DNA of 64,000 bases from a bacterium UBP1_UBA4783 (GTDB lineage: Bacteria; Krumholzibacteriota; Krumholzibacteriia; Krumholzibacteriales; Krumholzibacteriaceae), in the NCBI GenBank assembly GCA_002403075.1, contig DHHB01000012.1, positions 13,767 through 77,766 on the forward strand, read 5' to 3'. The stretch's first letter is position 1; every line of letters begins with the position of its first letter. The notes beneath the pieces are model-generated. The model saw only the letters and a list, made by a program, of their open reading frames with translations, did not search any database and had not been told where the DNA came from. This document shows, piece after piece, positions 4,904 through 28,072 of the stretch. The position numbers were made by a program, and so were the translations under genes.

Positions 4904-5311
4904 ATGCGAAAGATCCTCTCGATCCCGTCGGCCGTCGGAGCGCTCGTCGCCGCTCTCGGGACGATAGCCTCGTGCGGCGGCCTGCTCGAGAACCGCGTCG
5001 CCTCGCCGGTCGTGTCGGGGGACGAAGTCACTTTTCGACTGAAGAGCCCGTCGGCGCGCACGGTCCAGATCGCCGGCGATTGGCCGGGCAACAACTGGGC
5101 GCGCGGCGACGCGGAAGCGGGAGAGGTGCTCGTCGGACTCATGCGGGGCGGGGCCGAGAGCGGCGTCTGGGAGGTGACGGTGCGTCTCGAGCCGGGACGT
5201 TACCGGTATCGATTTCTCGTGAACGAATCCGTTTGGCTTTTCGATCCGGACAATCCGCGGATCGTGGACGACGGGAGAGGGGGGAAGGCAAACCTGCTCA
5301 TCGTGCCGTAA
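4904..5311 (+). CDS. CBM48 domain lipoprotein
   Basis: ATG with a lipoprotein-type signal (LGTIASCGG). EVTFRLKSPSARTVQIAGDWPGNNW...YRYRFLVNESVWLFDPDNP matches the CBM48 motif. Confidence 0.65.
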   Translation: MRKILSIPSAVGALVAALGTIASCGGLLENRVASPVVSGDEVTFRLKSPSARTVQIAGDWPGNNWARGDAEAGEVLVGLMRGGAESGVWEVTVRLEPGRYRYRFLVNESVWLFDPDNPRIVDDGRGGKANLLIVP

Positions 5312-5314
5312 AGC

Positions 5315-5707
5315 ATGAAACACATGTGGACGAGATCGTTTCTCGCTTTCCTTTTTTGTGTCGCGGCGATCGTTCCCGCCTGCGGTCCCGGTTTCTCGGG
5401 GATCGAGGGCGGACGGGGGGCGGCGGGACCCGAGCGCGCGGAGGGCGGGATCCGTTTCAGCCTTCATCACCCTAAGGCGAAGAAAGTGGCTATCGCCGGA
5501 GATTTCAACGGGTGGTCGCCGACCGCCGATCGGCTCTTCGACCGCGAAGACAAGGGGCTCTGGTCGATCGTTCTTCCGCTTCCGCCCGGCCGGTACGAAT
5601 ACAAGTTCGTGGTCGACGGGGAAAAATGGATCCCGGATCCCGGGAATCCCGAGCGTGAGAAAGACGGCTTCGGGGGGTACAACTCCGTGGCGGTGATAGC
5701 TCCCTAA
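5315..5707 (+). CDS. CBM48 domain lipoprotein
   Basis: Starts 4 nt after the previous stop. Lipobox (IVPACGPG). IRFSLHHPKAKKVAIAGDFNGWSP...YEYKFVVDGEKWIPDPGNP matches the CBM48 motif. Confidence 0.7.
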   Translation: MKHMWTRSFLAFLFCVAAIVPACGPGFSGIEGGRGAAGPERAEGGIRFSLHHPKAKKVAIAGDFNGWSPTADRLFDREDKGLWSIVLPLPPGRYEYKFVVDGEKWIPDPGNPEREKDGFGGYNSVAVIAP

Positions 5708-5797
5708 CGGGCCCGAGCGGACTATCGTTCACAGTGGAACGGAGCCGCGGCGAAACGGGTATTGCAGATTGCTATGGAGTTTGCTATTTTCAGCTTG

Positions 5798-5803
5798 TAT
5801 AAT
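5798..5803 (+). promoter_or_regulatory. perfect -10 hexamer TATAAT inside a 380-bp AT-rich island upstream of the giant gene
   Basis: cttgTATAATaag. The -35 is poor. The surrounding 5708-6090 is the only strongly AT-rich stretch in the first 37 kb. Confidence 0.3.
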
Positions 5804-6090
5804 AAGTTACGCCAAGGCGCCGGCGGTCCTCGAATACCGTTCGCGGGTCAAGTCCCCGGAAATAGCGAGGGAACGACGCTCGAGCCGATCCAAAGAGAAT
5901 ATTGTAATCAATTAATTTAAAAGTCGTTACGTCACAAGAGGGGGGAGATTTTCGGCCGTCCGCCAATCGCCCGCTTGAGAGGAGCGGGAATTTGTCATAG
6001 CCTCTCGTGTGGCGGCGGTTGGTTGGCATGCACTTTGCGGTATTGATTCTGAACCATTTTCAGACCTCGGTCGGGAGCCGTATTCGAGAC

Positions 6091-9000
6091 ATGAACAAGC
6101 GATCGAACATTCGCCCCGCGGCGCTCGTATTCGGGCTTTTCATCTGCATGCTCGCGGCCGCCGGCGCCCAGGCGGGGCCGGGATCGGGCGCGGCTTCGAT
6201 CGCCCCTTCCGCCGCTGTCGCGGCGGGCTCGGCCGGCACATGGACGATCACATACACCGCCGCCGAGACCTTCGTCGCGGGAACGATCGAAATCGAGATT
6301 CCGGATGGCTGGAGCGCCCCGCAGTTATCGAACTCCTCCGCGCGCGGCTTCGTTACGGCGTCGTCGATGGGGACGCTCGGGACGCCGGCATTGTCGATCA
6401 GCGGAAGAAACATCGTCGTTTCCGTCGCCGCCCTCGAGGTGAACCAGACGGTCGATGTCGTGTACGGAGACGCGTCGATCCATCAGAGCGGCGCCGCGGT
6501 CGCGCAAAGCAACCCCCAAACCGGAGTCCAGTTTCTCGTGCGGTCGGATTCGAACGGCCCGGGCAGGATGCCGATCGCCTCGTCCCCCCGGATCGACATC
6601 GTCGCGATTATCGCGGCGCAACTTGTATTCGTCACGCCTCCGCGCGTCTTTCCCGCGGACGGCGAGAGCGGCGCGATCGGGCTCGCGACGCTCGACGAGT
6701 TCGGGAGCCCCTCGCCGGTCGAGGCGGATTTGCGCATTCACCTCGCTTCGAGCGCGCCGACCGGACGTTTCTCCGCCGCTCCCGGGGCGGGTTTTTCGGA
6801 GACGGATACGGTGACGATCCTGGCGGGGACCGATACGGCGTTCTTCTACTATCGTGACCCCGTCGCCGGAATAAAGACGATCACCGCGTCCGCGGTGGAA
6901 CAGGGCTGGATCGATCCGCAGCAGACGGTCACCGTCGAGCCGGGCGAGCCGTTCAGGCTCCGGGCGGTTCCGGCCGATACGCTCGCGATCGCCGGCGAAT
7001 ACGTCCGGTATCGCCTGCGGATCGAGGATTCTCTCGGCAACCCGAGCACAGCCTCGAGCAGCCAAACGATATCGCTCTTCGGACAGCCGGGGAGCTTCTA
7101 CGCGACCGCCGATCACTCGACCCCGATCTCGCAGATCGTCATCCCGGCCGGCGTATCCTCGATATCGCTCGATTACCGGAATACCGTCAAAGCGCTCAGC
7201 ACGCCGTATATTCTCGGTTTCTTCGATCAGGACGGGACGCCGCCGACGCTCGAGGCGGCTTCGGCCTCGATCTACATCGATCACGCCGCCTACAGTCCGG
7301 TCGCTTCGGACGTCGGTTCCGCCGATCCGCTCGCGGTCGCGGACGGCGCCGACCCGGTCCCCCTCGTCGCGTACGTCCGAGACGCGTTTTTCAACGGCGT
7401 CGACGGCGCGACGGTGGTGTTCATGGCGACGGGCTCGGGCAACTCGATCTCGCAGCCCGGCGGCGTGACCGGCTCCAACGGCCGCGCGAACGGTTCGATG
7501 ACGTCCACGGTCGCCGGGCAGAAGACGGTCACCGCGCACGTCGGCGGCGTGTATATCGATCATAGCGTCGTCGCGACCTTCGTCGCGGGTCCGTTCGATC
7601 CGTCGGTGTCGGACGTCGCGGTGGACAAGAGTGTCGCGGCGGCGGACGGAGCGGACTCGATCTCGGTGACGGTGACGGTTCGGGACGCCGAGGGGAACGC
7701 GATAACGGGGAGCGTGGTGACGCTCGAGTGCACGGGGAGCGGGAACGCGATCCGACAGCCGGTGGGTGCGACGGGTGCGGACGGGACGGCGAGGGGGAGC
7801 GTCGTATCGACGACGGCGGAGGCGAAGACGATCCGGGCGCGAGCGAACGGTCTGTACCTCGCGGAGCAGGCTGCGGTGACCTTCGTCGCGGGTCCGTTCG
7901 ATCCCGACAACTCCACGGTGGCGATCGACAAGACGACGATCGTCGCGAACGGAGTCGACGCGGGGATCGTGACGGTGACGGTTCGGGACGCGAGCGGCAA
8001 TCCGGTGTCCGGAAGGACCGTTACGATCGAATGTTCGGGCGGCGACAATGCGATTCAGCAGCCGGCCGTTCCGACGGGAGCCGACGGTCGCGCGGTCGGA
8101 AGCGTGGCGTCGACGCGAGCGGAGTCGAAAACGGTCGCGGCCCGCGTCGACGGGGTTCTTGTGACGGAAACGGCGCCGGCGATCTTCGTCGCCGGTCCGT
8201 TCGACGCGAACGTTTCGAATCTCGAGGTCGACAAGACGACGATCGTCGCGGACGGCGTCGATTCGGTTCTCGTGACGGCGACCGTCAGAGACGCCAACGG
8301 GAATCCGATCGCGGGCAGGGCCGTGACGATCGAATGCAACGGAACGGGAAACACGATCCGGCAGCCGGCCGGCGCGACGGACGCTCTCGGCCGGGCCGTG
8401 GGAAGCGTGAAATCCTCCGTCGCGGCGGGGAAGACGATCACGGCGCGGGTGGACGCTCTGTATCTCGCGGACGCGGTTCCGGTCGTTTTCGTCGCGGGTC
8501 CCTTCGATCCGTCGGTATCGGGTCTCGGCGTCGACAAAACGACGATAACGGCGGACGGCGCGGATTCCGTGCTCGTAACCGTCACCGCGAGGGACGCCCT
8601 CGGAAATCCGATTTCGGGAAGAACCGTGGCGATCGAGTGCACGGGGAGCGGGAACGCGATCCATCAGCCCGTCGGGTTCACCGGCGCCGACGGCCGCGCG
8701 GTCGGAAGCGTGAAATCGACCGTGGCCGAGGCGAAGACGATCCGAGGCCGCGTCGACGGGGCGCTCGTCGCGGCGGCGGCCGCGGTGAGCTTCGTGCCGG
8801 GGCCGTTCGATCCGGGCGTTTCAGAAATTCAAGTCGACAAGACGACCATCATCGCGGACGGGGTGGACGCGGTGTCCGTGACGGTGCGCGTGCGCGACGC
8901 CGACGCGAATCCGATCGCGGGCGCGCTCGTCGCCATAGAATGTTCGGGGAGCGGGAACGTGATTACGCAGCCCGTCGGCGTGACGGGCGCGGACGGCCGC

Positions 9001-19128: not shown

Positions 19129-21035
19129 TGAGCATGAGAACGAAACGACGCAGCACGGCTATCTGGATTCTCGCGCTCCTTCCGCTCCTCGCCGGGCCGG
19201 TCGCCGCGCAGGAAGGAACGGGGGGGACGCGCTCTATTTTCGCGCTCGGGGCGGGCTCGCGCGCCATCGCCATGGGGGGCGCCTTTTCCGCCGCCGGCGA
19301 CGACGCATCGGTCCTCCTCTACAATCCGGCGGCGCTCGCGCTCAACCGGTACACATCCGTTCTCGCGACCCACGCCCGGCTCTTCTCCGGCTGGAGCGAC
19401 GCGGGGTACGATTTCCTCGGATTCGTCTATCCGACCGTTTCGGCGGGCGCCTTCGGCGCGGGCTTCATGACGGCCGGGACGGACGGCATCCGGGGATTCG
19501 ACGAATGGAGCCGCGAGACCGGCGAGCTCACCTATCGCGAGAGTCAGGCGGTCATCGCCTACGCGTACACCCTTCCGTGGCGGTACGCGGGCGCGGTCAC
19601 CGCGGGATCCTCGGTCAAGATGCTCAGTCAGCGCGTCGGGGACTATTCGGATACGGGCACGGGCGTCGACGTCGGATTCGTGTTCCGGCCGCGCTGGGTC
19701 GAGGGGCTCAGCCTCGGCTGCAACCTTCAGGATATCGTCGGCGCCGAGATCAAGCTCGTTTCCGTGAGTGAACCCGTCGATCGCACGATCATGATCGGGG
19801 CGGGGTACGCCCGCGCCTTCGGAAACGGTTCGGCGATCCTTCTCGCGGCGCAGATGGACGCGCCCGAACGAGGCGACTCGCGGTTCCGCGCGGGGGTCGA
19901 GTACCGGTTCCGCGGCCTCTTCGCGGTCCGCGCCGGTTACGACGGCGAGGGCGTGACGGCGGGCGTCGGCGTCGGCTGGCGCGGCTTCGGCTTCGACTAC
20001 GGCTACATGAGCCGGGAGGACGCCGGCAGCACGCATCCCCTCTCGCTGTCCGCCCGCGTCGGCTCGTCGGTCGACGATCGGGTGCGGATACGCGAGGAAC
20101 GGCGGCTCGCGGAGCAGGAACGCCGGATCCAGCAGATACTCTCGAGCCGGATCGCGGGCCATATCGCCGAGGCGGAGCGGTTCCGGCTCGAGGGAGCGCC
20201 CGCGAAGGCGCTCGACGAGCTCAAGATCGCCCTCGAATACGATCCGACGAATCGGGCGGTCGCCGACACGATCGCCGTGGTCGAGCGCGCGATCCTCGCC
20301 GCCGAACAGGAGCGCACGCGAAACGCGGAGAAATCCGCGCTCATCAACCAGCACTTCCGGCTGGGTCTCGAATACTACGGCACGGGGGATTACATCAGGG
20401 CGCGCACCGAGTGGCGGAGCGCGCTCGAGATCGATCCGGAGAACGCGCAGGCCGCGGAGTACCTCGGCGCGACCGAGGACAAGCTCGGGAGTCTCGCGGA
20501 TCAGCACCGGACGCGCGCGCTCGATCTCGAGCAGCGCGGCCAGCTCGCCGCGGCGCTCGGCGAGTGGAACATGGTGCGGACGATCGCGCCCGAGTCCGCC
20601 GAAGCGAACGCCGCCGTGCAGCGTCTGACCGCGCGCGTCGACGAGCTGAGCCGCGATTACCTCACCGCCGCCAAACGTCTCCGTGTCGCCGAGCTCTACG
20701 AAGGCGCCGTGAAGGCGTTCGGCGAGGGGCGGTACCCCGACGCCGTGCGGCAGATCAGAGAGCTGCTCGGCATCGATCCGAACCACGCGGAGGCCCGCAC
20801 GCTGCTGCGCCGCGCGGAGCGGCGTATGACCCCGCTCGACGACGCCGAAAAGGCGGCGATCCGCGCGCTCTACCTCGAGGGCATGAGGCATTTCACGAAC
20901 GGCGATTACCTAAAGGCCGTCGAACGGTGGCAGCGCATCCTCGAGATCGATCCCGACAACGAGAGCGTGCTGAGGAATATCGATGAGGCCTCGAAGCGGC
21001 TCCGCAACAGCGGCGCGGCGGGAGGCGCACGATGA
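19128..21035 (+). CDS. PorV/FadL-like outer-membrane beta-barrel fused to C-terminal TPR repeats
   Basis: ATG overlaps the giant gene stop (TGATG). Signal peptide. IFALGAGSRAIAMGGAFSAAGDDASVLLYNPAALA is a PorV/FadL-like N-terminal motif. The C-terminal 300 aa are TPR-like helical repeats (LEYDP, LEIDPEN, LGIDPNH, LEIDPDN). Confidence 0.7.
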   Translation: MSMRTKRRSTAIWILALLPLLAGPVAAQEGTGGTRSIFALGAGSRAIAMGGAFSAAGDDASVLLYNPAALALNRYTSVLATHARLFSGWSDAGYDFLGFVYPTVSAGAFGAGFMTAGTDGIRGFDEWSRETGELTYRESQAVIAYAYTLPWRYAGAVTAGSSVKMLSQRVGDYSDTGTGVDVGFVFRPRWVEGLSLGCNLQDIVGAEIKLVSVSEPVDRTIMIGAGYARAFGNGSAILLAAQMDAPERGDSRFRAGVEYRFRGLFAVRAGYDGEGVTAGVGVGWRGFGFDYGYMSREDAGSTHPLSLSARVGSSVDDRVRIREERRLAEQERRIQQILSSRIAGHIAEAERFRLEGAPAKALDELKIALEYDPTNRAVADTIAVVERAILAAEQERTRNAEKSALINQHFRLGLEYYGTGDYIRARTEWRSALEIDPENAQAAEYLGATEDKLGSLADQHRTRALDLEQRGQLAAALGEWNMVRTIAPESAEANAAVQRLTARVDELSRDYLTAAKRLRVAELYEGAVKAFGEGRYPDAVRQIRELLGIDPNHAEARTLLRRAERRMTPLDDAEKAAIRALYLEGMRHFTNGDYLKAVERWQRILEIDPDNESVLRNIDEASKRLRNSGAAGGAR

Positions 21036-24000
21036 AGCGCCGGGAACGCATACGGGATCGGGAAACCTTCCACCTCGAGGTTCCGGCCGACGAGAACAAC
21101 CTCAGCGAGGTCCGGGACTTCATCGCCAAAATATGCGACCGCGCGGGGTTTTCGAAGAGCGAGACGAACAACACGAAGCTCGCCGTCGACGAAGCGTGCA
21201 CGAACATCATCAAACACGCGTACAAAGAAAAGGGCGGAGACATACGGATCGACGTTCAGGCGTCGCCCGGCACGGTCGAGATCAGCATCTTCGACCGGGG
21301 CGAGCCCTTCGACTGGTCCAAGGTGAAAGAGCCCGATCTCGACCACTACGTCGAGATCGGCAAGAAGGGCGGCCTCGGGATCTATCTGATGAACCGCCTC
21401 ATGGACAAGCTCAGCTATTCGGCGTCGCCGGCGGGAAACCGCCTCTCCATGACGAAGCGGGCCGCGGCCGCCGCGGCCTCGCATATGCCGCTCTTCGATT
21501 CGATCATACGGCCGAAATGGACCTCGACGCTGCGCTTCAAATTCGCGATGCGGGCCGCGCTCGGGTTCTTCGGCCTCATCATGTTTCTCTGGGTGATCCT
21601 CTTCTACCGGCAGACGCACGATCTTCGCGACCGGGTCGCGGACGCCTGGCTCCAGCGCAAGCGCATCGCCGAGATCATCGCGAGCTCGAGCGTCGGCGCG
21701 CTCACGAAGGACCCGTACGACGTGAGCGGTCTCGAGCTCAGCACCGACGCGATTCCGCGTCAGATGCGGCGCGCCCCCGAGGTGAAATACATCCGCGTCG
21801 TGCACGAGGACGGACGAATCTTCGCTTCGAACCGGCAGGAGGAGTTTCTCACGGCGTACGCCGTTCCCGCCGAGGTTCGCGAGCTCGAACGCGGCGCCGC
21901 CTTCCGCTCCGTGCGCGACGACAGCCTCGGATCGATCCGCGAGTTCCATCAAACGGTGTATCTCACCGATTCGGAGCGGGGCCAGACGACGGCGATCGGA
22001 CGCGTCGTCGTCGGCGTTTCCGAGCCCCTCGTGACGGAGGACATCATCGACCCGCGGCCCATGATGACGCTGCTCCTCGTCGGCGTCTTCGCCGCGGGGG
22101 TCGCGCTCCTCTACCTGCTCGTCGCCATATTCGTGCGGCCGATCCAGGCGCTCACCGACGGCGTCCGGGCGATCGGCGAGGGATCCCTCAACGACGAGAT
22201 TCAGATCACGGGACCGCAGGAGATCGGCGAGATCGCGCGCGCCTTCAACGAGATCACTTCGAAGTTCCGCGACGCGCAGAAGAACGTCGTCGAGCAGGAA
22301 CGTCTCCACAAGGAAATGCAGGTCGCCCAGGAGATCCAGCAGACCCTTCTTCCGAAACGCGTGCCGGCGATCGGCGGCTACGACATCGCGAGCCTGTACC
22401 GTGCCGCCAAGGAGGTCGGCGGGGACTATTACGACTTCGTGCGGGTCGACGACGACACGCTCGGCGTCGTCGTGGCGGACGTCTCCGGCAAGGGCGTGCC
22501 CGGTTCGCTCGTCATGACGATGATCCGCACGGCCCTCCGCATGGAGGCGCGCGGAAACCACTCCGCCGCGGAGGTCATGGCGCGCATGAACGACTTCGTG
22601 ACGGAAGACATGAAGAAGGGCATGTTCGTCACGATTTTCTACTCGATCCTCGATTCGAAGAACCGCATCATCTCCTACGCTTCGGCGGGTCACAATCCGA
22701 TGATCCTGTACCGCGCCGAGACGGACGAGACGTATTTTCTCAATCCCCGCGGTTTTCCCGTCGGCATCAAACTGCCCGACGACACGCTCTTCCGCCGCTC
22801 GATCGACGTCGAGAAGATCAAGCTCAAGAAAGACGACATGCTCGTCATCTACACGGACGGCGTGACCGAGGCGATGAACGGGGATCGGGATCAGTACGGC
22901 GAGGATCGCCTCATCCGGCTCATCAAGGACTGCGGACGCCTCTCGCCCCAGGAGTTCATCGACCGTCTCAACGCCGACATCAAGGGCTTCACCGGCGATC
23001 AGCCCCAGAACGACGACATCACCGTCGTCGCGATCAAGGAAAAGCTCATGGCGGACGAGGTGCTCTACGGGATCCGCCGGAAGCTGCTCGATCTCGTCGA
23101 GGTCCAGGGGGTTTCGGTCGCCGAGGCGTGCCGGATGATGAGGGTTTCCCCCTCGACCTACTACCGCTACAAGAAGCGCCTCGTGGAGCTCGGAGATCGC
23201 GGGCTCCAGGACAAGACCCTGCGCCGCGAAGTCGATATCAGGCGAGTCAGCGTCGAGCAGCGAAAGGGCATTCTCGAGATCATCCGCGCGAATCCGCGCT
23301 TCGGCGCGAAGAAAATAGCCGCTCTGTACAACGAGGGGAAGGAAGAGCGGGCGCACCTTTCCGCGGCGATCGTCTACGACGAGCTCAAGCGTATCCGGCT
23401 GAACACCTACGAGATGCGGCTCGAGTACCTGCGCCGCAACCGTCTCATCACCGACGACGAATTCAAGACGCTCATGGCCGCCCACGGCAGCCGGCCGCGC
23501 GAGTCCGTCGAGGCGCCGGCGGGCGGGGAGATCGTCCCCGCCGACGCGGCCGCGGAGACGGAACCGGAAGCGCACAAGGCGAAGCACGTCCCCCGTGCGC
23601 CGCGAGCCGCCGCCGCGCCGGCGCGCCGCCGTTTCGCCCGCGAGGCGTTCGAGACGGGCGAGGGAACAGCGATCGAGGTCACGTCCGAGGAGCTCGACGG
23701 CGGCGCCGTCGCGCTCCACGTGGCGGGACATCTCGATTCGTCTTCGGCGGGCGAGCTCGAGGGGATCCTCGAGAGCGTGCACGAGTACGGATACCGGAAC
23801 ATCATCGTCGATCTCGCCGCGGTGACCTATATTTCGAGCGGGGGCTGGGGCATCTTCACGGGGCGGGTGAAAACGCTCCGCGAAGCCGACGGCGACGTGG
23901 TGCTCGTCGGCATGTCCTCGGAGGTATACGACATCTACGAGCTGCTCGGCTTCCAGCAGATCATCATGCAGTTCCCGTCCGTCGAAGAGGCCGTCGCCTA

Positions 24001-25243
24001 CATCGGCCTGCCGCTGGCCGAACGCCGGAGCCGCTTCGAGAAAGCGTCCCGCGAGGCGGCTCCCCTCGAGCCGGCCGAAACGCCGGTCGCCTCTGGAGAA
24101 GCGGCGGCCGGAAGCGAAGTAATCGCCGAGCCGGAGTCGCCCTGGGCGGCGCTCAAGATCGAAGCGGGGACGGTCGGCGGCCAGGGAGAGATCACGGTGC
24201 TCTATCTCGACGGCGTCGTCGATACGGTAAGCTGCGTGAAGCTCCGCGGCGTTCTGGACGGGCTCGTCGACCGCGGCGCCGTGAAGATCGTTCTCGACAT
24301 GTCGCGGGTCGAGTACGTGAGCTCGAGCGGCTGGGGCGTGTTCGCCTCGCGCATACGGGATATCAGGCTGCGAGCGGGAGACATAAAGATATTCGGCATG
24401 GATCAGGAAGTCGACGGAATATTCCACATGCTCGGATTCGATTCGATCATGCGCTCCTTCGGAATTCTCACCGAAGCGATCGAGGATTTCAAGAACGACG
24501 CCACCGCCCTCGCGGCGGAGGACGAAACGTTCGACGAGGAATCGCCGGAGGCGGCGGTCGCGGCGTCGGAGCGCGCGCCTGAGCCTGCCGCCGCGGCGCT
24601 CGCGATCGCTTCCGCCGGCGGGACGGGACGCGAGGGAAGGACCGTCGTCGTGAGGATCGACGGCGCGATCGACTCGTCGACCTCGGAGGCGTTCGAAGCC
24701 GAGCTCGACGCGCGATCCGCCGAGCGTCCGAAGAACCTCGTGCTCGATCTCAGCAGGCTGGTTTACATATCGAGTGGCGGATGGGGTATCATCATCAGAT
24801 ACATGCAAAAGCTCGGCGAAACCGGCGGCCGCGTCGTCGTCGCCGGCATGAACTCGATCGTTCTCAAGATATTCCGCGATCTCGGCTTCGAGCCGCTGAT
24901 CCCGCAGTACGGAACGCTCGAAAAGGCGCTCGAGGAGCTCGCCCCCGGGATGCGGGAGACCGAAGCGACTCCGGAAGAGGAGGCGTCGGCGCCGGTCGCT
25001 GCGGCTCAGCCCGGGGCCGAGGTCCGGAAGCACGATCTCGCCGACGCGCTGCTCGGCGCTCCGGATATGGCGCCGCTCACGCCGCTCGAGCCGGTCAAGG
25101 ATACGGAGAAGGTCATCTTCATCGATTTCAAACGGCGCACGGACGTGCGCGAGGACAAGGACAAGCGCATTAAGCGGCTCGGCTGGGACGAGTACGGCAA
25201 ACGGCTGCTCGATTCCGGCCGGAAGCCCCGGCGCACGAAGTGA
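21032..25243 (+). CDS. 1403-aa fusion protein: RsbW-like anti-sigma-factor kinase (GHKL) domain, 2 TM, HAMP, PP2C SpoIIE/RsbU phosphatase, IS3-type HTH segment, three STAS (anti-sigma antagonist) domains
   Basis: Single uninterrupted ORF; the ATG overlaps the upstream stop. aa 10-140: DEACTNIIKHAY and GGLGIYLMNRLMDKL (N/G boxes of RsbW/SpoIIAB). Hydrophobic helices at aa 166-192 and 344-367. aa 368-420: HAMP-like. aa 425-672: GGDYYDF, DVSGKG, SAGHNP, YTDGVTEA, DDITVV (PP2C). aa 675-815: VSVAEACRMMRVSPSTYYRYKKR (IS3 OrfA-like HTH). Three repeats of ..DL..V.YISSGGWG.. (STAS) at aa ~880-990, 1040-1150 and 1205-1300. Confidence 0.8.
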   Translation: MKRRERIRDRETFHLEVPADENNLSEVRDFIAKICDRAGFSKSETNNTKLAVDEACTNIIKHAYKEKGGDIRIDVQASPGTVEISIFDRGEPFDWSKVKEPDLDHYVEIGKKGGLGIYLMNRLMDKLSYSASPAGNRLSMTKRAAAAAASHMPLFDSIIRPKWTSTLRFKFAMRAALGFFGLIMFLWVILFYRQTHDLRDRVADAWLQRKRIAEIIASSSVGALTKDPYDVSGLELSTDAIPRQMRRAPEVKYIRVVHEDGRIFASNRQEEFLTAYAVPAEVRELERGAAFRSVRDDSLGSIREFHQTVYLTDSERGQTTAIGRVVVGVSEPLVTEDIIDPRPMMTLLLVGVFAAGVALLYLLVAIFVRPIQALTDGVRAIGEGSLNDEIQITGPQEIGEIARAFNEITSKFRDAQKNVVEQERLHKEMQVAQEIQQTLLPKRVPAIGGYDIASLYRAAKEVGGDYYDFVRVDDDTLGVVVADVSGKGVPGSLVMTMIRTALRMEARGNHSAAEVMARMNDFVTEDMKKGMFVTIFYSILDSKNRIISYASAGHNPMILYRAETDETYFLNPRGFPVGIKLPDDTLFRRSIDVEKIKLKKDDMLVIYTDGVTEAMNGDRDQYGEDRLIRLIKDCGRLSPQEFIDRLNADIKGFTGDQPQNDDITVVAIKEKLMADEVLYGIRRKLLDLVEVQGVSVAEACRMMRVSPSTYYRYKKRLVELGDRGLQDKTLRREVDIRRVSVEQRKGILEIIRANPRFGAKKIAALYNEGKEERAHLSAAIVYDELKRIRLNTYEMRLEYLRRNRLITDDEFKTLMAAHGSRPRESVEAPAGGEIVPADAAAETEPEAHKAKHVPRAPRAAAAPARRRFAREAFETGEGTAIEVTSEELDGGAVALHVAGHLDSSSAGELEGILESVHEYGYRNIIVDLAAVTYISSGGWGIFTGRVKTLREADGDVVLVGMSSEVYDIYELLGFQQIIMQFPSVEEAVAYIGLPLAERRSRFEKASREAAPLEPAETPVASGEAAAGSEVIAEPESPWAALKIEAGTVGGQGEITVLYLDGVVDTVSCVKLRGVLDGLVDRGAVKIVLDMSRVEYVSSSGWGVFASRIRDIRLRAGDIKIFGMDQEVDGIFHMLGFDSIMRSFGILTEAIEDFKNDATALAAEDETFDEESPEAAVAASERAPEPAAAALAIASAGGTGREGRTVVVRIDGAIDSSTSEAFEAELDARSAERPKNLVLDLSRLVYISSGGWGIIIRYMQKLGETGGRVVVAGMNSIVLKIFRDLGFEPLIPQYGTLEKALEELAPGMRETEATPEEEASAPVAAAQPGAEVRKHDLADALLGAPDMAPLTPLEPVKDTEKVIFIDFKRRTDVREDKDKRIKRLGWDEYGKRLLDSGRKPRRTK

Positions 25244-25247
25244 GCGA

Positions 25248-26024
25248 ATGAAGAAGTACGCTGTCATGACGATGAAGGGCGGGACGGGAAAGACGACGAC
25301 CGCCGTCTGCCTTTCGCACGGCCTTTCGCTCGCGGGGAAGCGCGTCCTCCTCGTCGACTGCGATCCGCAGCGGAGCGCCGCGACGAGCTTCGGCGTCAAG
25401 GGAGAGCGCGGGCTCGCGGAGCTCCTGACCTCGGGCGAAGTCGACATCCTGCAGGTGCGCGACAACCTGTTCTTCATCGATTCGGGCGGCCGGCGTCTCG
25501 CCGAGGTCGAGCTCGTTCTCGGCTCGCACGAGAACCGCGAGCGCCGTCTCTCCGAGGCTCTCAAGCATCTGAAGGGATGCGATTACGTGATCTGCGATTG
25601 CTCGCCGTCGCTCAACCTCATCAACATCAACGCGCTCGTATACTGCGACGAAGTGATCATACCCGTTTCGATGGATTATCTCGCGGAGAGGGGGGCGACG
25701 GAGACGGCGGGGATCATCGAGGAGATCCACGCGTTCAACAGCCGGAAACCGATATCCTTCCGGCTGCTCCCGACGTTCTACGACTCGCGCACGCGGCTCG
25801 CGCACCGCGTCCTCGAGGATCTGCGAGAGAGGTTCGGCGACCGCCTTCTCACGACGGTCATACGCATGAACCAGGCGATCAAGGAAGCGCCCGGCCAGCA
25901 GAAGACGATTTTCGAACACGCGCCGCTCTCGCGCGGCGCGTTCGACTATTACCATCTCACCGAGGAGATTCTCGGCCGCGATCGTCCGGGCGAGAGCCGC
26001 GTCGGCGAGTCCCAGGGAAGCTGA
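25248..26024 (+). CDS. ParA/MinD-family P-loop ATPase (orphan, no parB)
   Basis: Deviant Walker A MKGGTGKTTTA, DCDPQ, CDCSPS motifs. Starts 5 nt after the partner-switching gene. Confidence 0.85.
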   Translation: MKKYAVMTMKGGTGKTTTAVCLSHGLSLAGKRVLLVDCDPQRSAATSFGVKGERGLAELLTSGEVDILQVRDNLFFIDSGGRRLAEVELVLGSHENRERRLSEALKHLKGCDYVICDCSPSLNLININALVYCDEVIIPVSMDYLAERGATETAGIIEEIHAFNSRKPISFRLLPTFYDSRTRLAHRVLEDLRERFGDRLLTTVIRMNQAIKEAPGQQKTIFEHAPLSRGAFDYYHLTEEILGRDRPGESRVGESQGS

Positions 26025-27243: not shown

Positions 27244-27612
27244 ATGGACAAGCTCGCCATAGACGTAGAATACGTCGATAACGTCGTCGTCCTGAAGCTT
27301 CGCGGCATCGTCGACTCCGGAACCGCGCAGTTTCTCGAGGATACGTTCAACGAGCTCGTCGCGGCGAGCACGGTCCGCATCGTCGCCGATCTCGGCGATG
27401 TGAACTACATAAGCTCGGCCGGCTGGGGGATATTCGTGGGGGAGATCAAGGGGATACGCCAGCGCGGCGGAGACATCAAGCTCGCGGCAATGCCTCCCGA
27501 CGTGAGGGAGGTGTTCGAGCTCCTCGAGTTCAGCACGCTTTTGCGGCCGTACGGGACGCGCGAGGAGGCGATCGCCGCGTTTACCGCGCATCAGAATACG
27601 AAAACGTCATAG
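27244..27612 (+). CDS. STAS-domain anti-sigma-factor antagonist (SpoIIAA/RsbV-like)
   Basis: VNYISSAGWGIFVGEIK motif. 122 aa. GGAGAGGA RBS. Confidence 0.8.
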   Translation: MDKLAIDVEYVDNVVVLKLRGIVDSGTAQFLEDTFNELVAASTVRIVADLGDVNYISSAGWGIFVGEIKGIRQRGGDIKLAAMPPDVREVFELLEFSTLLRPYGTREEAIAAFTAHQNTKTS

Positions 27613-27634: not shown

Positions 27635-28072
27635 ATGGAAGGGATCAACGTATCGTTCTCGAAGCCCGAGGATAATCCGGACGTGTCGGTGCTGTCCGTT
27701 CAAGGGTACGTGGATACCACGACGTCGGCCGAGCTCGAGGAGAGTCTGAAGAGGCTGCTCAAGAAAAACCGATTCAACATCGTCATCGATCTCGCCGGCG
27801 TGAACTATATCTCATCGGCCGGATGGGGCATCTTCATCAGCGAAATCAAATCGATCCGGGAGACCGGCGGCGATCTCAAGCTCGCCTCGATGGTCGCTGA
27901 CGTGTACGAGGTGTTCGAGCTCCTCGAGTTTCAAACGATCCTCGAGAGCTACGATACCGTCGCCGAAGCGGTGAAATCGTTCGGCGCGCCGGGAGGAGAC
28001 GCCGGATCGGAGAAGCCGGAAAGCCGCGCCGGCGCCAAGGTCGGCAGCACGCACGGACCGAAGACCGACTAG
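27635..28072 (+). CDS. STAS-domain anti-sigma-factor antagonist (second copy)
   Basis: VNYISSAGWGIFISEIK motif. 145 aa. Paralog of the previous gene. Confidence 0.8.
   Translation: MEGINVSFSKPEDNPDVSVLSVQGYVDTTTSAELEESLKRLLKKNRFNIVIDLAGVNYISSAGWGIFISEIKSIRETGGDLKLASMVADVYEVFELLEFQTILESYDTVAEAVKSFGAPGGDAGSEKPESRAGAKVGSTHGPKTD

Follow-up and report, generated by a model that had tools for sequence, protein, structure and literature searches.

A transposase-derived helix-turn-helix module built into a partner-switching kinase/phosphatase of Krumholzibacteriota and other uncultured phyla

We describe a gene of the Krumholzibacteriaceae bacterium UBP1_UBA4783 located in a stretch of 64,000 nucleotides (nt) of the contig DHHB01000012.1, the whole of which is called the window hereafter. 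The gene is an uninterrupted open reading frame (ORF; window 21032-25243, + strand) encoding a protein of 1403 amino acids (aa), in which an RsbW-like kinase, a membrane sensor, HAMP, PP2C, a helix-turn-helix (HTH) module and three STAS domains follow one another in this order. The protein is thus a variation on the known partner-switching systems, in which kinase and phosphatase come together with a paired-like HTH module of transposase origin. Partner-switching modules normally work through a sigma factor or, in the case of SypA, through a different target, and the joining of a DNA-binding-type domain to the phosphatase suggests a direct and testable route from the partner switch to DNA. The module is besides a clean bacterial case of ancient transposase-domain domestication, in which the full N-terminal region of an IS481-like transposase has long been kept in uncultured phyla.

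Transposase ancestry and constraint of the module

The segment of the ORF running from the peptide VSVAEACRMMRVSPSTYYRYKKRL to RANPRFGAKKIAALYNEGKEERAHLSAAIVYDELKRIRLN (aa 675-815, nt 23054-23476) had been read in a preliminary description as an IS3-type HTH resembling the HTH of OrfA and the HTH_21 region of OrfB. In a Pfam scan of the whole protein, HTH_28 matched aa 682-728 with 30.0 bits against a cut-off of 25, and HTH_23 (28.4 bits, cut-off 24.6) and HTH_29 (28.8 bits, cut-off 28.1) also passed, all three lying between SpoIIE and STAS, with HTH_32 (aa 709-778) at 26.3 bits and under its cut-off of 33.7. Among the NCBIfam models the segment was matched best by the IS481 transposase (NF033577, E = 9e-17, profile positions 2-110 of 284), followed by IS630 (E = 4.8e-8) and IS3 (E = 4.7e-7, 29 bits against a cut-off of 160). 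The IS481 match itself amounts to only 57-61 bits against a cut-off of 224, the catalytic two-thirds of the profile being unmatched. The same model was matched by all 24 family members tested (best E = 1e-18), IS3 by 21 of them (best 2.8e-11) and IS630 by 15. On profile evidence, the similarity of the segment to transposase HTHs is far beyond chance. HTH_21 gave no Pfam match at E <= 1 in the whole protein or the segment and none in the 24 family members, and HTH_Tnp_1, the model of the IS3 OrfA type, remained under its cut-off of 24.1 with both the segment (20.8 bits) and the whole protein (17.3 bits). The transposase-type HTH proposed earlier thus stands, whereas the assignment to IS3, with its OrfA and OrfB resemblances, gives way to IS481.

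The extent of the homology was given by P0143, a true transposase of the IS481 type that has HTH_32, rve and rve_3 domains and in which rve starts from residue 155. The stretch aa 676-812 is collinear with residues 5-140 of this transposase (29% identity over 139 aa, E = 2e-14), and the module therefore corresponds to everything that precedes the catalytic core of an IS481-like transposase, its entire DNA-binding region. The match begins practically with the first residues of the transposase, straight after the last PP2C motif DDITVVAIKEK, of which DDITxV is invariant in the columns of the family alignment A2. The module is a domain homologous to the IS481-family N-terminal region and not a transposase itself. 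A sequence-profile search of the PDB retrieved only SpoIIE phosphatases and, marginally, the HTH of the Sleeping Beauty transposase (E = 0.005).

The module as a whole was placed at aa 668-819 (23033-23488, +) from Pfam, NCBIfam, AlphaFold2, Foldseek and the substitution ratios given below. An AlphaFold2 model of the segment, built from an alignment of 89 sequences, had a mean predicted local distance difference test (pLDDT) score of 91.8 and consisted of two helical subdomains joined by a low-confidence hinge. A long helix continuing PP2C (aa 668-690, segment residues 2-24) leads into the first HTH subdomain with helices at aa 696-703 and 707-725 (segment 30-37 and 41-59), which is followed by the hinge at about aa 727-736 (segment 61-70, pLDDT ~63) and by the second subdomain with helices at aa 741-753, 759-767, 778-787, 793-802 and 808-819 (segment 75-87, 93-101, 112-121, 127-136 and 142-153). 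SPSTYYRYKKR lies in the helix that homology to transposase HTHs marks as the presumed recognition helix, and the pattern S-x-S-T-Y-Y-R-Y-K-K-R, carried by helix three of the first subdomain, is of a type known from transposase HTHs. When compared with the PDB by Foldseek, the model was closest to the DNA-bound paired domains of Pax5 (probability 0.99), Pax6 (0.98) and Prd (0.90), with the DNA-binding regions of TnsB, MuA and SETMAR (0.51) coming next. This structural evidence is supportive, not decisive, of a paired-domain-like fold.

The hallmarks of a mobile element are wanting around the module. Its GC content (0.63) lies within the range of 0.56-0.74 seen in the rest of the gene, no DDE or rve match was found by Pfam and NCBIfam anywhere in the 1403-aa protein, and no convincing flanking inverted or direct repeats were detected, the best being imperfect matches of 12-21 nt that are typical of such GC-rich (65% GC) DNA. 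Neither a second copy of the module nor an IS481-like transposase was found within the 64-kb window. The ratio of nonsynonymous to synonymous substitution rates (dN/dS, omega) was estimated by the Nei-Gojobori method pairwise against seven orthologues (dS 0.33-1.66) and was 0.11-0.24 for the module, as compared to 0.06-0.13 for the kinase, 0.03-0.12 for HAMP-PP2C, 0.09-0.21 for the first and second STAS domains and 0.20-0.46 for the third, with the sensor (0.23-0.45) above the module. The module is under purifying selection, with a constraint like that of the catalytic and substrate domains. As it is in frame, has no catalytic domain and no insertion sequence (IS) boundaries and is held by purifying selection, exaptation and not a disrupting insertion is indicated. 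The preliminary description was borne out on these points, having called the segment an exapted, in-frame module of host-like GC without DDE domain or flanking inverted repeats.

It is highly improbable that the segment is a recent IS insertion or its remnant in a pseudogenised or chimeric gene, or that it resembles a transposase by chance. The automatic annotation of the Joint Genome Institute (JGI), which calls many fragments of the PP2C-HTH family 'transposase', would speak for a mobile element. A recent insertion is, however, at odds with an ORF of full length and host-like GC that has neither inverted repeats nor DDE, with the lack of a paralogue in the window, with the low omega of the module and with the preservation of the PP2C-HTH junction in 80 loci, whose bins belong to several phyla and whose identity is 40-99%, and a chance resemblance with hidden Markov model E-values that reach down to that of IS481. 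The recent insertion was accordingly rejected on conservation and selection, there being no repeats, GC anomaly or window paralogue to support it.

Distribution of the family and order of its assembly

To what extent the architecture is shared was determined by an exhaustive search of 1.84 billion cluster representatives, of which 335 matched at E <= 1e-3. The best 150 were mapped with the window protein's own domains (phmmer), and the module stood directly after PP2C in most of these 150 and in almost every one of the top 50. The full-length representatives show the order HATPase_c_2, (sensor), HAMP, PP2C and HTH, and their module occupies roughly aa 645-810. No more than 4 matches came from a word-indexed search for homologues of the segment by itself, and a profile search of the family yielded short fragments only (<= 368 aa), for which reason the full-length architectures were taken from the search of representatives. 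In a scan of one genome per GTDB species with the junction region as query, 381 stretches were found to encode a relative of the junction, and the HTH part was present in all 80 of the best 80.

The PP2C-HTH junction is thus carried by at least 80 GTDB species representatives, in bins of Krumholzibacteriota, Latescibacterota, Zixibacteria, Eisenbacteria, FCPU426, Ignavibacteria and Gemmatimonadota, and more distant full-length members are annotated as candidate division KSB1. In all of these 80 the gene occupies one common cluster, described below. The closest genome match was a contig of the metagenome-assembled genome (MAG) DeMMO6_31, 99% identical to the window, and the next closest phylum-labelled matches were from Candidatus Krumholzibacteriota. 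With the junction kept across at least seven phylum-level groups, the module is no lineage-specific insert inside the protein but an old domestication shared by several uncultured phyla.

The arrangement behind the module is far less uniform. Three STAS domains in cis were found only in the closest relatives (above ~50% identity), many family members stop 30-60 aa past the HTH (797-845 aa in total), and others carry TPR or BTAD-like tails or a tail without STAS. Loci of Eisenbacteria, FCPU426, Zixibacteria, Ignavibacteria and Gemmatimonadota and some loci of Krumholzibacteriia have a separate downstream STAS and none in the protein. In a locus of Eiseniibacteriota (L074), for example, the gene ends at 8765, about 220 nt past the HTH match, and a STAS ORF comes next, and a zixibacterial locus (L071) encodes a 973-aa protein with a tail of ~200 aa past the HTH that has no STAS, followed by ParA and then by a STAS-containing ORF. 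These arrangements are most simply read as an ancestral HTH near the C-terminus, to which three STAS domains in cis were added by a later fusion via a non-conserved linker. The direction from HTH to STAS fusion, the single origin and the ancestral arrangement are based on the ranking of E-values and the taxonomic distribution, and not on a tree. The idea of an insert inside the signalling protein is reversed on this reading, since distant members are without STAS and many end soon after the HTH; the module would now look internal because three STAS domains were fused behind it through a linker.

The candidate phyla carrying PP2C-HTH we take to be grouped as the Fibrobacteres-Chlorobi-Bacteroidetes (FCB) superphylum. 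An ancestor in this group may have captured an IS481-like N-terminal region at the 3' end of a gene for a membrane kinase/phosphatase made up of RsbW-like kinase, sensor, HAMP and PP2C, after which the DDE part would have been lost, while purifying selection retained the HTH as a permanent domain at the C-terminus. In Krumholzibacteriota together with Latescibacterota, the three STAS substrate domains would then have been fused behind the HTH via a disordered linker.

In public databases, members of the family are named 'SpoIIE family protein phosphatase' (NCBI) or, when fragmentary, 'transposase' (JGI). The latter name was found on dozens of PP2C-HTH fragments in JGI/IMG, which is a systematic mis-annotation that inflates the counts of mobile elements in metagenomes of these phyla. 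On a 2.3-Mb contig (CAWIIQ010000001.1, loci L001/L026) the orthologue is called as five genes (292, 292, 232, 313 and 85 aa), yet it aligns end to end with the 1403-aa protein. The split calls probably go back to frameshift errors of long-read assembly, which would explain why fragments are annotated separately as 'transposase' or 'phosphatase'. Another unusual member, P0003 (226 aa, from a 1678-nt ENA contig), has FliG_C attached to the latter half of the HTH module, with 66-73% identity to the window, and is most likely a chimeric assembly and no real fusion.

The nearest relatives of the module without PP2C (P0073, P0095, P0061, P0097 and P0074) have two tandem N-terminal copies of it in proteins of up to 2000 aa. 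In P0073, P0095 and P0061 the tandem HTH is fused to GT2 glycosyltransferases according to the Pfam scan, P0097 is called 'glycosyltransferase' by NCBI in a bin labelled Bathyarchaeia, and P0074 is labelled Patescibacteria. These proteins form a family of their own, the second one to have domesticated this transposase-type module.

Signalling domains and possible roles of the module

The 1403-aa protein was delimited by its ORF and by Pfam and NCBIfam matches, and the orthologues have their domains in the same order. It starts with an ATG overlapping the stop codon of a TPR gene upstream. The N-terminal domain is HATPase_c_2, a serine kinase or anti-sigma domain of the RsbW/SpoIIAB type (aa 17-142, 21080-21457, +; PF13581, E = 4e-31), which is also matched by the RsbW models of NCBIfam (E = 2.5e-25). 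A hydropathy scan located two hydrophobic segments (~aa 171-193 and 343-367; 21542-22132, +) around a putative extracytoplasmic sensor, for which Pfam gave a weak sCache_3_2 match under the cut-off (aa 208-338, E = 2.4e-4). These are followed by HAMP (aa 364-407, 22121-22252, +; PF00672, E = 2.9e-10) and the SpoIIE/PP2C serine phosphatase (aa 473-669, 22448-23038, +; PF07228, E = 2.1e-51). We infer from the predicted topology that the kinase, PP2C, HTH and STAS domains are cytoplasmic.

Behind the HTH module, a low-complexity linker rich in Ala, Pro, Arg and Glu (aa 820-880, 23489-23671, +; GC 0.73-0.74) leads to the first STAS domain; the linker had no tblastn match in any orthologue and is not conserved. 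Pfam finds three STAS stretches in the protein (E = 2e-52). The first domain (23696-23989, +), covered by a TIGR00377 match at aa 889-986, has the motif YISSGGWG with Ser 935 (nt 23834-23836) as candidate phospho-acceptor by homology to SpoIIAA/RsbV, the second (24149-24481, +), located by Pfam and domain mapping, has YVSSSGWG with Ser 1097, and the third (24635-24928, +; best Pfam stretch aa 1202-1299) has YISSGGWG with Ser 1247. The pattern Y[IV]SSxGWG was found by motif search in all three cis domains as well as in both STAS proteins encoded downstream, and by homology its serine is the one phosphorylated in proteins of the SpoIIAA/RsbV type. With kinase, PP2C and STAS substrates all present, the protein appears to be a complete partner-switching set.

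In the mechanism that we propose, the periplasmic sensor and HAMP would decide how far the N-terminal serine kinase or the PP2C phosphatase prevails, and this balance would determine the phosphorylation state of the conserved serine in the STAS domains, both in cis and in trans. The HTH, rigidly linked to PP2C by the long helix, would act as output or anchor by binding nucleic acid, most likely specific DNA, whereby signalling could be coupled to the expression of the surface-protein cluster to which the gene invariably belongs. Such a protein would be a membrane-tethered regulator that does not require a sigma factor.

That the module binds nucleic acid as output or anchor of the switch is the best single explanation, and we hold it with moderate confidence. 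Its isoelectric point (pI) is 9.8 in a protein with a pI of 5.4 whose every other domain is neutral or acidic, and R712, K714, K761, R787, R796 and R802 are basic in at least 88% of the family alignment A2, with R712 and K714 sitting in the Y-Y-R-Y-K-K-R helix. Being basic and having conserved basic residues in its presumed recognition helices, the module plausibly binds DNA, and the protein may, as the preliminary description suggested, be a one-component DNA-binding regulator. The full scheme, in which membrane sensor, kinase, phosphatase and STAS domains gate a directly DNA-binding, paired-like output on the giant-adhesin/outer-membrane cluster throughout the FCB-group phyla as a sigma-independent partner switch, is put forward more tentatively. 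Several observations weigh against these proposals. The Foldseek E-values are weak (best 0.043) and the template modelling (TM) score is ~0.3, due to the two subdomains being oriented differently on their flexible hinge in the model and in the DNA-bound structures. A pI above 9 is found in only 30 of 56 family modules (mean 8.4, minimum 5.0) and a few are acidic, so nucleic-acid binding may not extend to the whole family. No operator was identified either, though no search was aimed at one. Membrane tethering of the HTH by way of a transmembrane segment, HAMP and PP2C is unusual, even if the membrane-bound regulators ToxR and CadC give a precedent for such tethering. The relatives without PP2C are tandem-HTH proteins, several with a membrane GT2 domain, and a non-transcriptional role would also fit them. 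Besides, the single origin and the ancestral arrangement stand on E-value ranking and distribution in place of a tree.

According to the main rival explanation, which is possible, if doubtful, the module no longer binds DNA and serves as a protein-protein interaction or scaffold domain in the partner-switching machine, where it could dock STAS or the RsbW-like kinase as a decoy resembling sigma region 4, or dimerise the phosphatase via the long helix. Its fixed attachment to a membrane protein, its invariant place after PP2C and the conserved connecting helix are consistent with such a role, as are the acidic modules just mentioned, a weak resemblance to Sigma70_r4_2 (E = 0.0028, under threshold) and the fusion of related tandem modules to membrane glycosyltransferases. 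RsbW-type domains canonically pair with a sigma factor, and none of the eight syntenic cluster genes analysed was seen to encode one. The conserved basic residues of the presumed recognition helices, the strongly basic module of the 1403-aa protein and the closeness of its fold to DNA-bound paired domains and transposase DNA-binding regions argue for nucleic-acid binding instead. Tethering of the complex to the nucleoid without any role in transcription, or action as a ParB-like partner of the ParA-like ATPase in the positioning of envelope machinery, we regard as unlikely. For ATPases of the ParA type the nucleoid serves as matrix, and they depend on a partner bound to DNA or cargo. A ParA/AAA_31 gene (25248-26024) does lie directly downstream of the PP2C-HTH gene and is syntenic in loci of Krumholzibacteriota, Latescibacterota, Zixibacteria, Ignavibacteria and Gemmatimonadota. 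Loci of Eisenbacteria and FCPU426 and some loci of Krumholzibacteriia (L062, L064, L065, L067, L072, L074, L075, L077, L078, L080 and L081), however, have the HTH module without ParA, and the Pfam and NCBIfam scans showed no ParB-like features. As ParA is not co-conserved with the module, this remains a minor rival, and a strict functional tie to ParA was rejected as a general explanation since it is missing in several lineages that keep the HTH.

Gene neighbourhood and comparison with known systems

The proteins of the window's neighbouring genes were compared by tblastn with 81 loci (L001-L081), and one gene order was found common to at least seven phylum-level groups (window 6007-30367 and MAG loci). 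It begins with a giant surface protein of 4373 aa having a C-terminal FlgD_ig domain and an outer-membrane-like protein fused to TPR, followed by the kinase/sensor/PP2C/HTH gene and by the ParA/AAA_31 ATPase gene, which is not seen in all lineages. Next come one or more STAS genes, two in the window (27244-27612 and 27635-28072, +; Pfam STAS E = 9e-18 and 9e-20), then a gene for a TPR protein, again not in all lineages, and one for a 720-aa membrane protein with a faint VWA match. Of all neighbours of the PP2C-HTH gene, a downstream STAS gene is conserved most widely. Both STAS genes of the window encode the motif YISSAGWG, and the two stand-alone proteins are likely trans substrates of the same kinase/phosphatase. 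The cluster has the look of an envelope or adhesion system, so far uncharacterised, that brings along a partner-switching regulator of its own, and its constant synteny marks this system as worth study in these phyla.

Upstream of the giant gene lies an AT-rich non-coding stretch of ~380 bp (5708-6090), the only long one of its kind, which has TTGCTAT twice (~5771-5795) and a -10-like element, TTGTATAAT, and is a candidate promoter or operator of the cluster. The likely true start of the giant gene is the ATG at 6091, from which a signal peptide, MNKRSNIRPAALVFGLFICMLAAAGAQA, would be translated. Further upstream, two small adjacent ORFs (4906-5311 and 5315-5707, +) with lipoprotein-like N-termini resemble by eye glycogen-binding modules of the CBM48/AMPK1_CBM type (…YRYRFLVNESVWLFDPDNP…, …YEYKFVVDGEKWIPDPGNP…).

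Among known systems, the transposases of IS481 and the related IS3 and IS630 families share homology with the module over their whole pre-catalytic region, with HTH_28/HTH_23 and HTH_32. Unlike an IS481 element, the module has no rve/DDE core, terminal inverted repeats or mobility. Fused as it is to a signalling protein, it shows vertical conservation across phyla and the purifying selection of a host gene. The Pax paired domain, SETMAR and TnsB/MuA have the same fold of two three-helix subdomains with a flexible linker. In contrast to the domains of the Pax type, the module is bacterial and placed on a PP2C/kinase sensor instead of a transcription-factor scaffold, with 16-23% identity and weak Foldseek E-values. 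The paired domain, too, is regarded as the domesticated DNA-binding part of a transposase, and if the module is indeed a DNA-binding output, bacteria would provide a parallel to the way in which Pax transcription factors arose from transposases. The ToxR/CadC type offers a possible functional analogy by having sensor and DNA-binding domain in one membrane protein; there the DNA-binding domain is an N-terminal OmpR-type winged helix and kinase/phosphatase chemistry is lacking.

Full-text literature searches retrieved no description of a PP2C-HTH or SpoIIE-transposase-HTH architecture, nor of partner switching in Krumholzibacteriota. The closest characterised analogues of the 1403-aa protein are the SypE-SypA pair and Rv1364c. 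SypE of Vibrio fischeri unites an RsbW-like serine kinase and PP2C in one polypeptide that acts on the single-domain STAS protein SypA, the output being surface polysaccharide and biofilm without a sigma factor (PMC10120452). The 1403-aa protein likewise has kinase and PP2C together, STAS partners and a surface-protein gene cluster. SypE, however, is soluble, takes its input through a central receiver domain and has neither HTH nor fused STAS, whereas the 1403-aa protein senses through a transmembrane region with HAMP and has the HTH module as well as three STAS domains in cis. Rv1364c of Mycobacterium tuberculosis carries sensor, PP2C, RsbW-like kinase and STAS on a single polypeptide (PMC9138534). 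It differs from the 1403-aa protein in its order of PAS, PP2C, kinase and STAS, in having one STAS and no DNA-binding module, and in being a soluble regulator of SigF.

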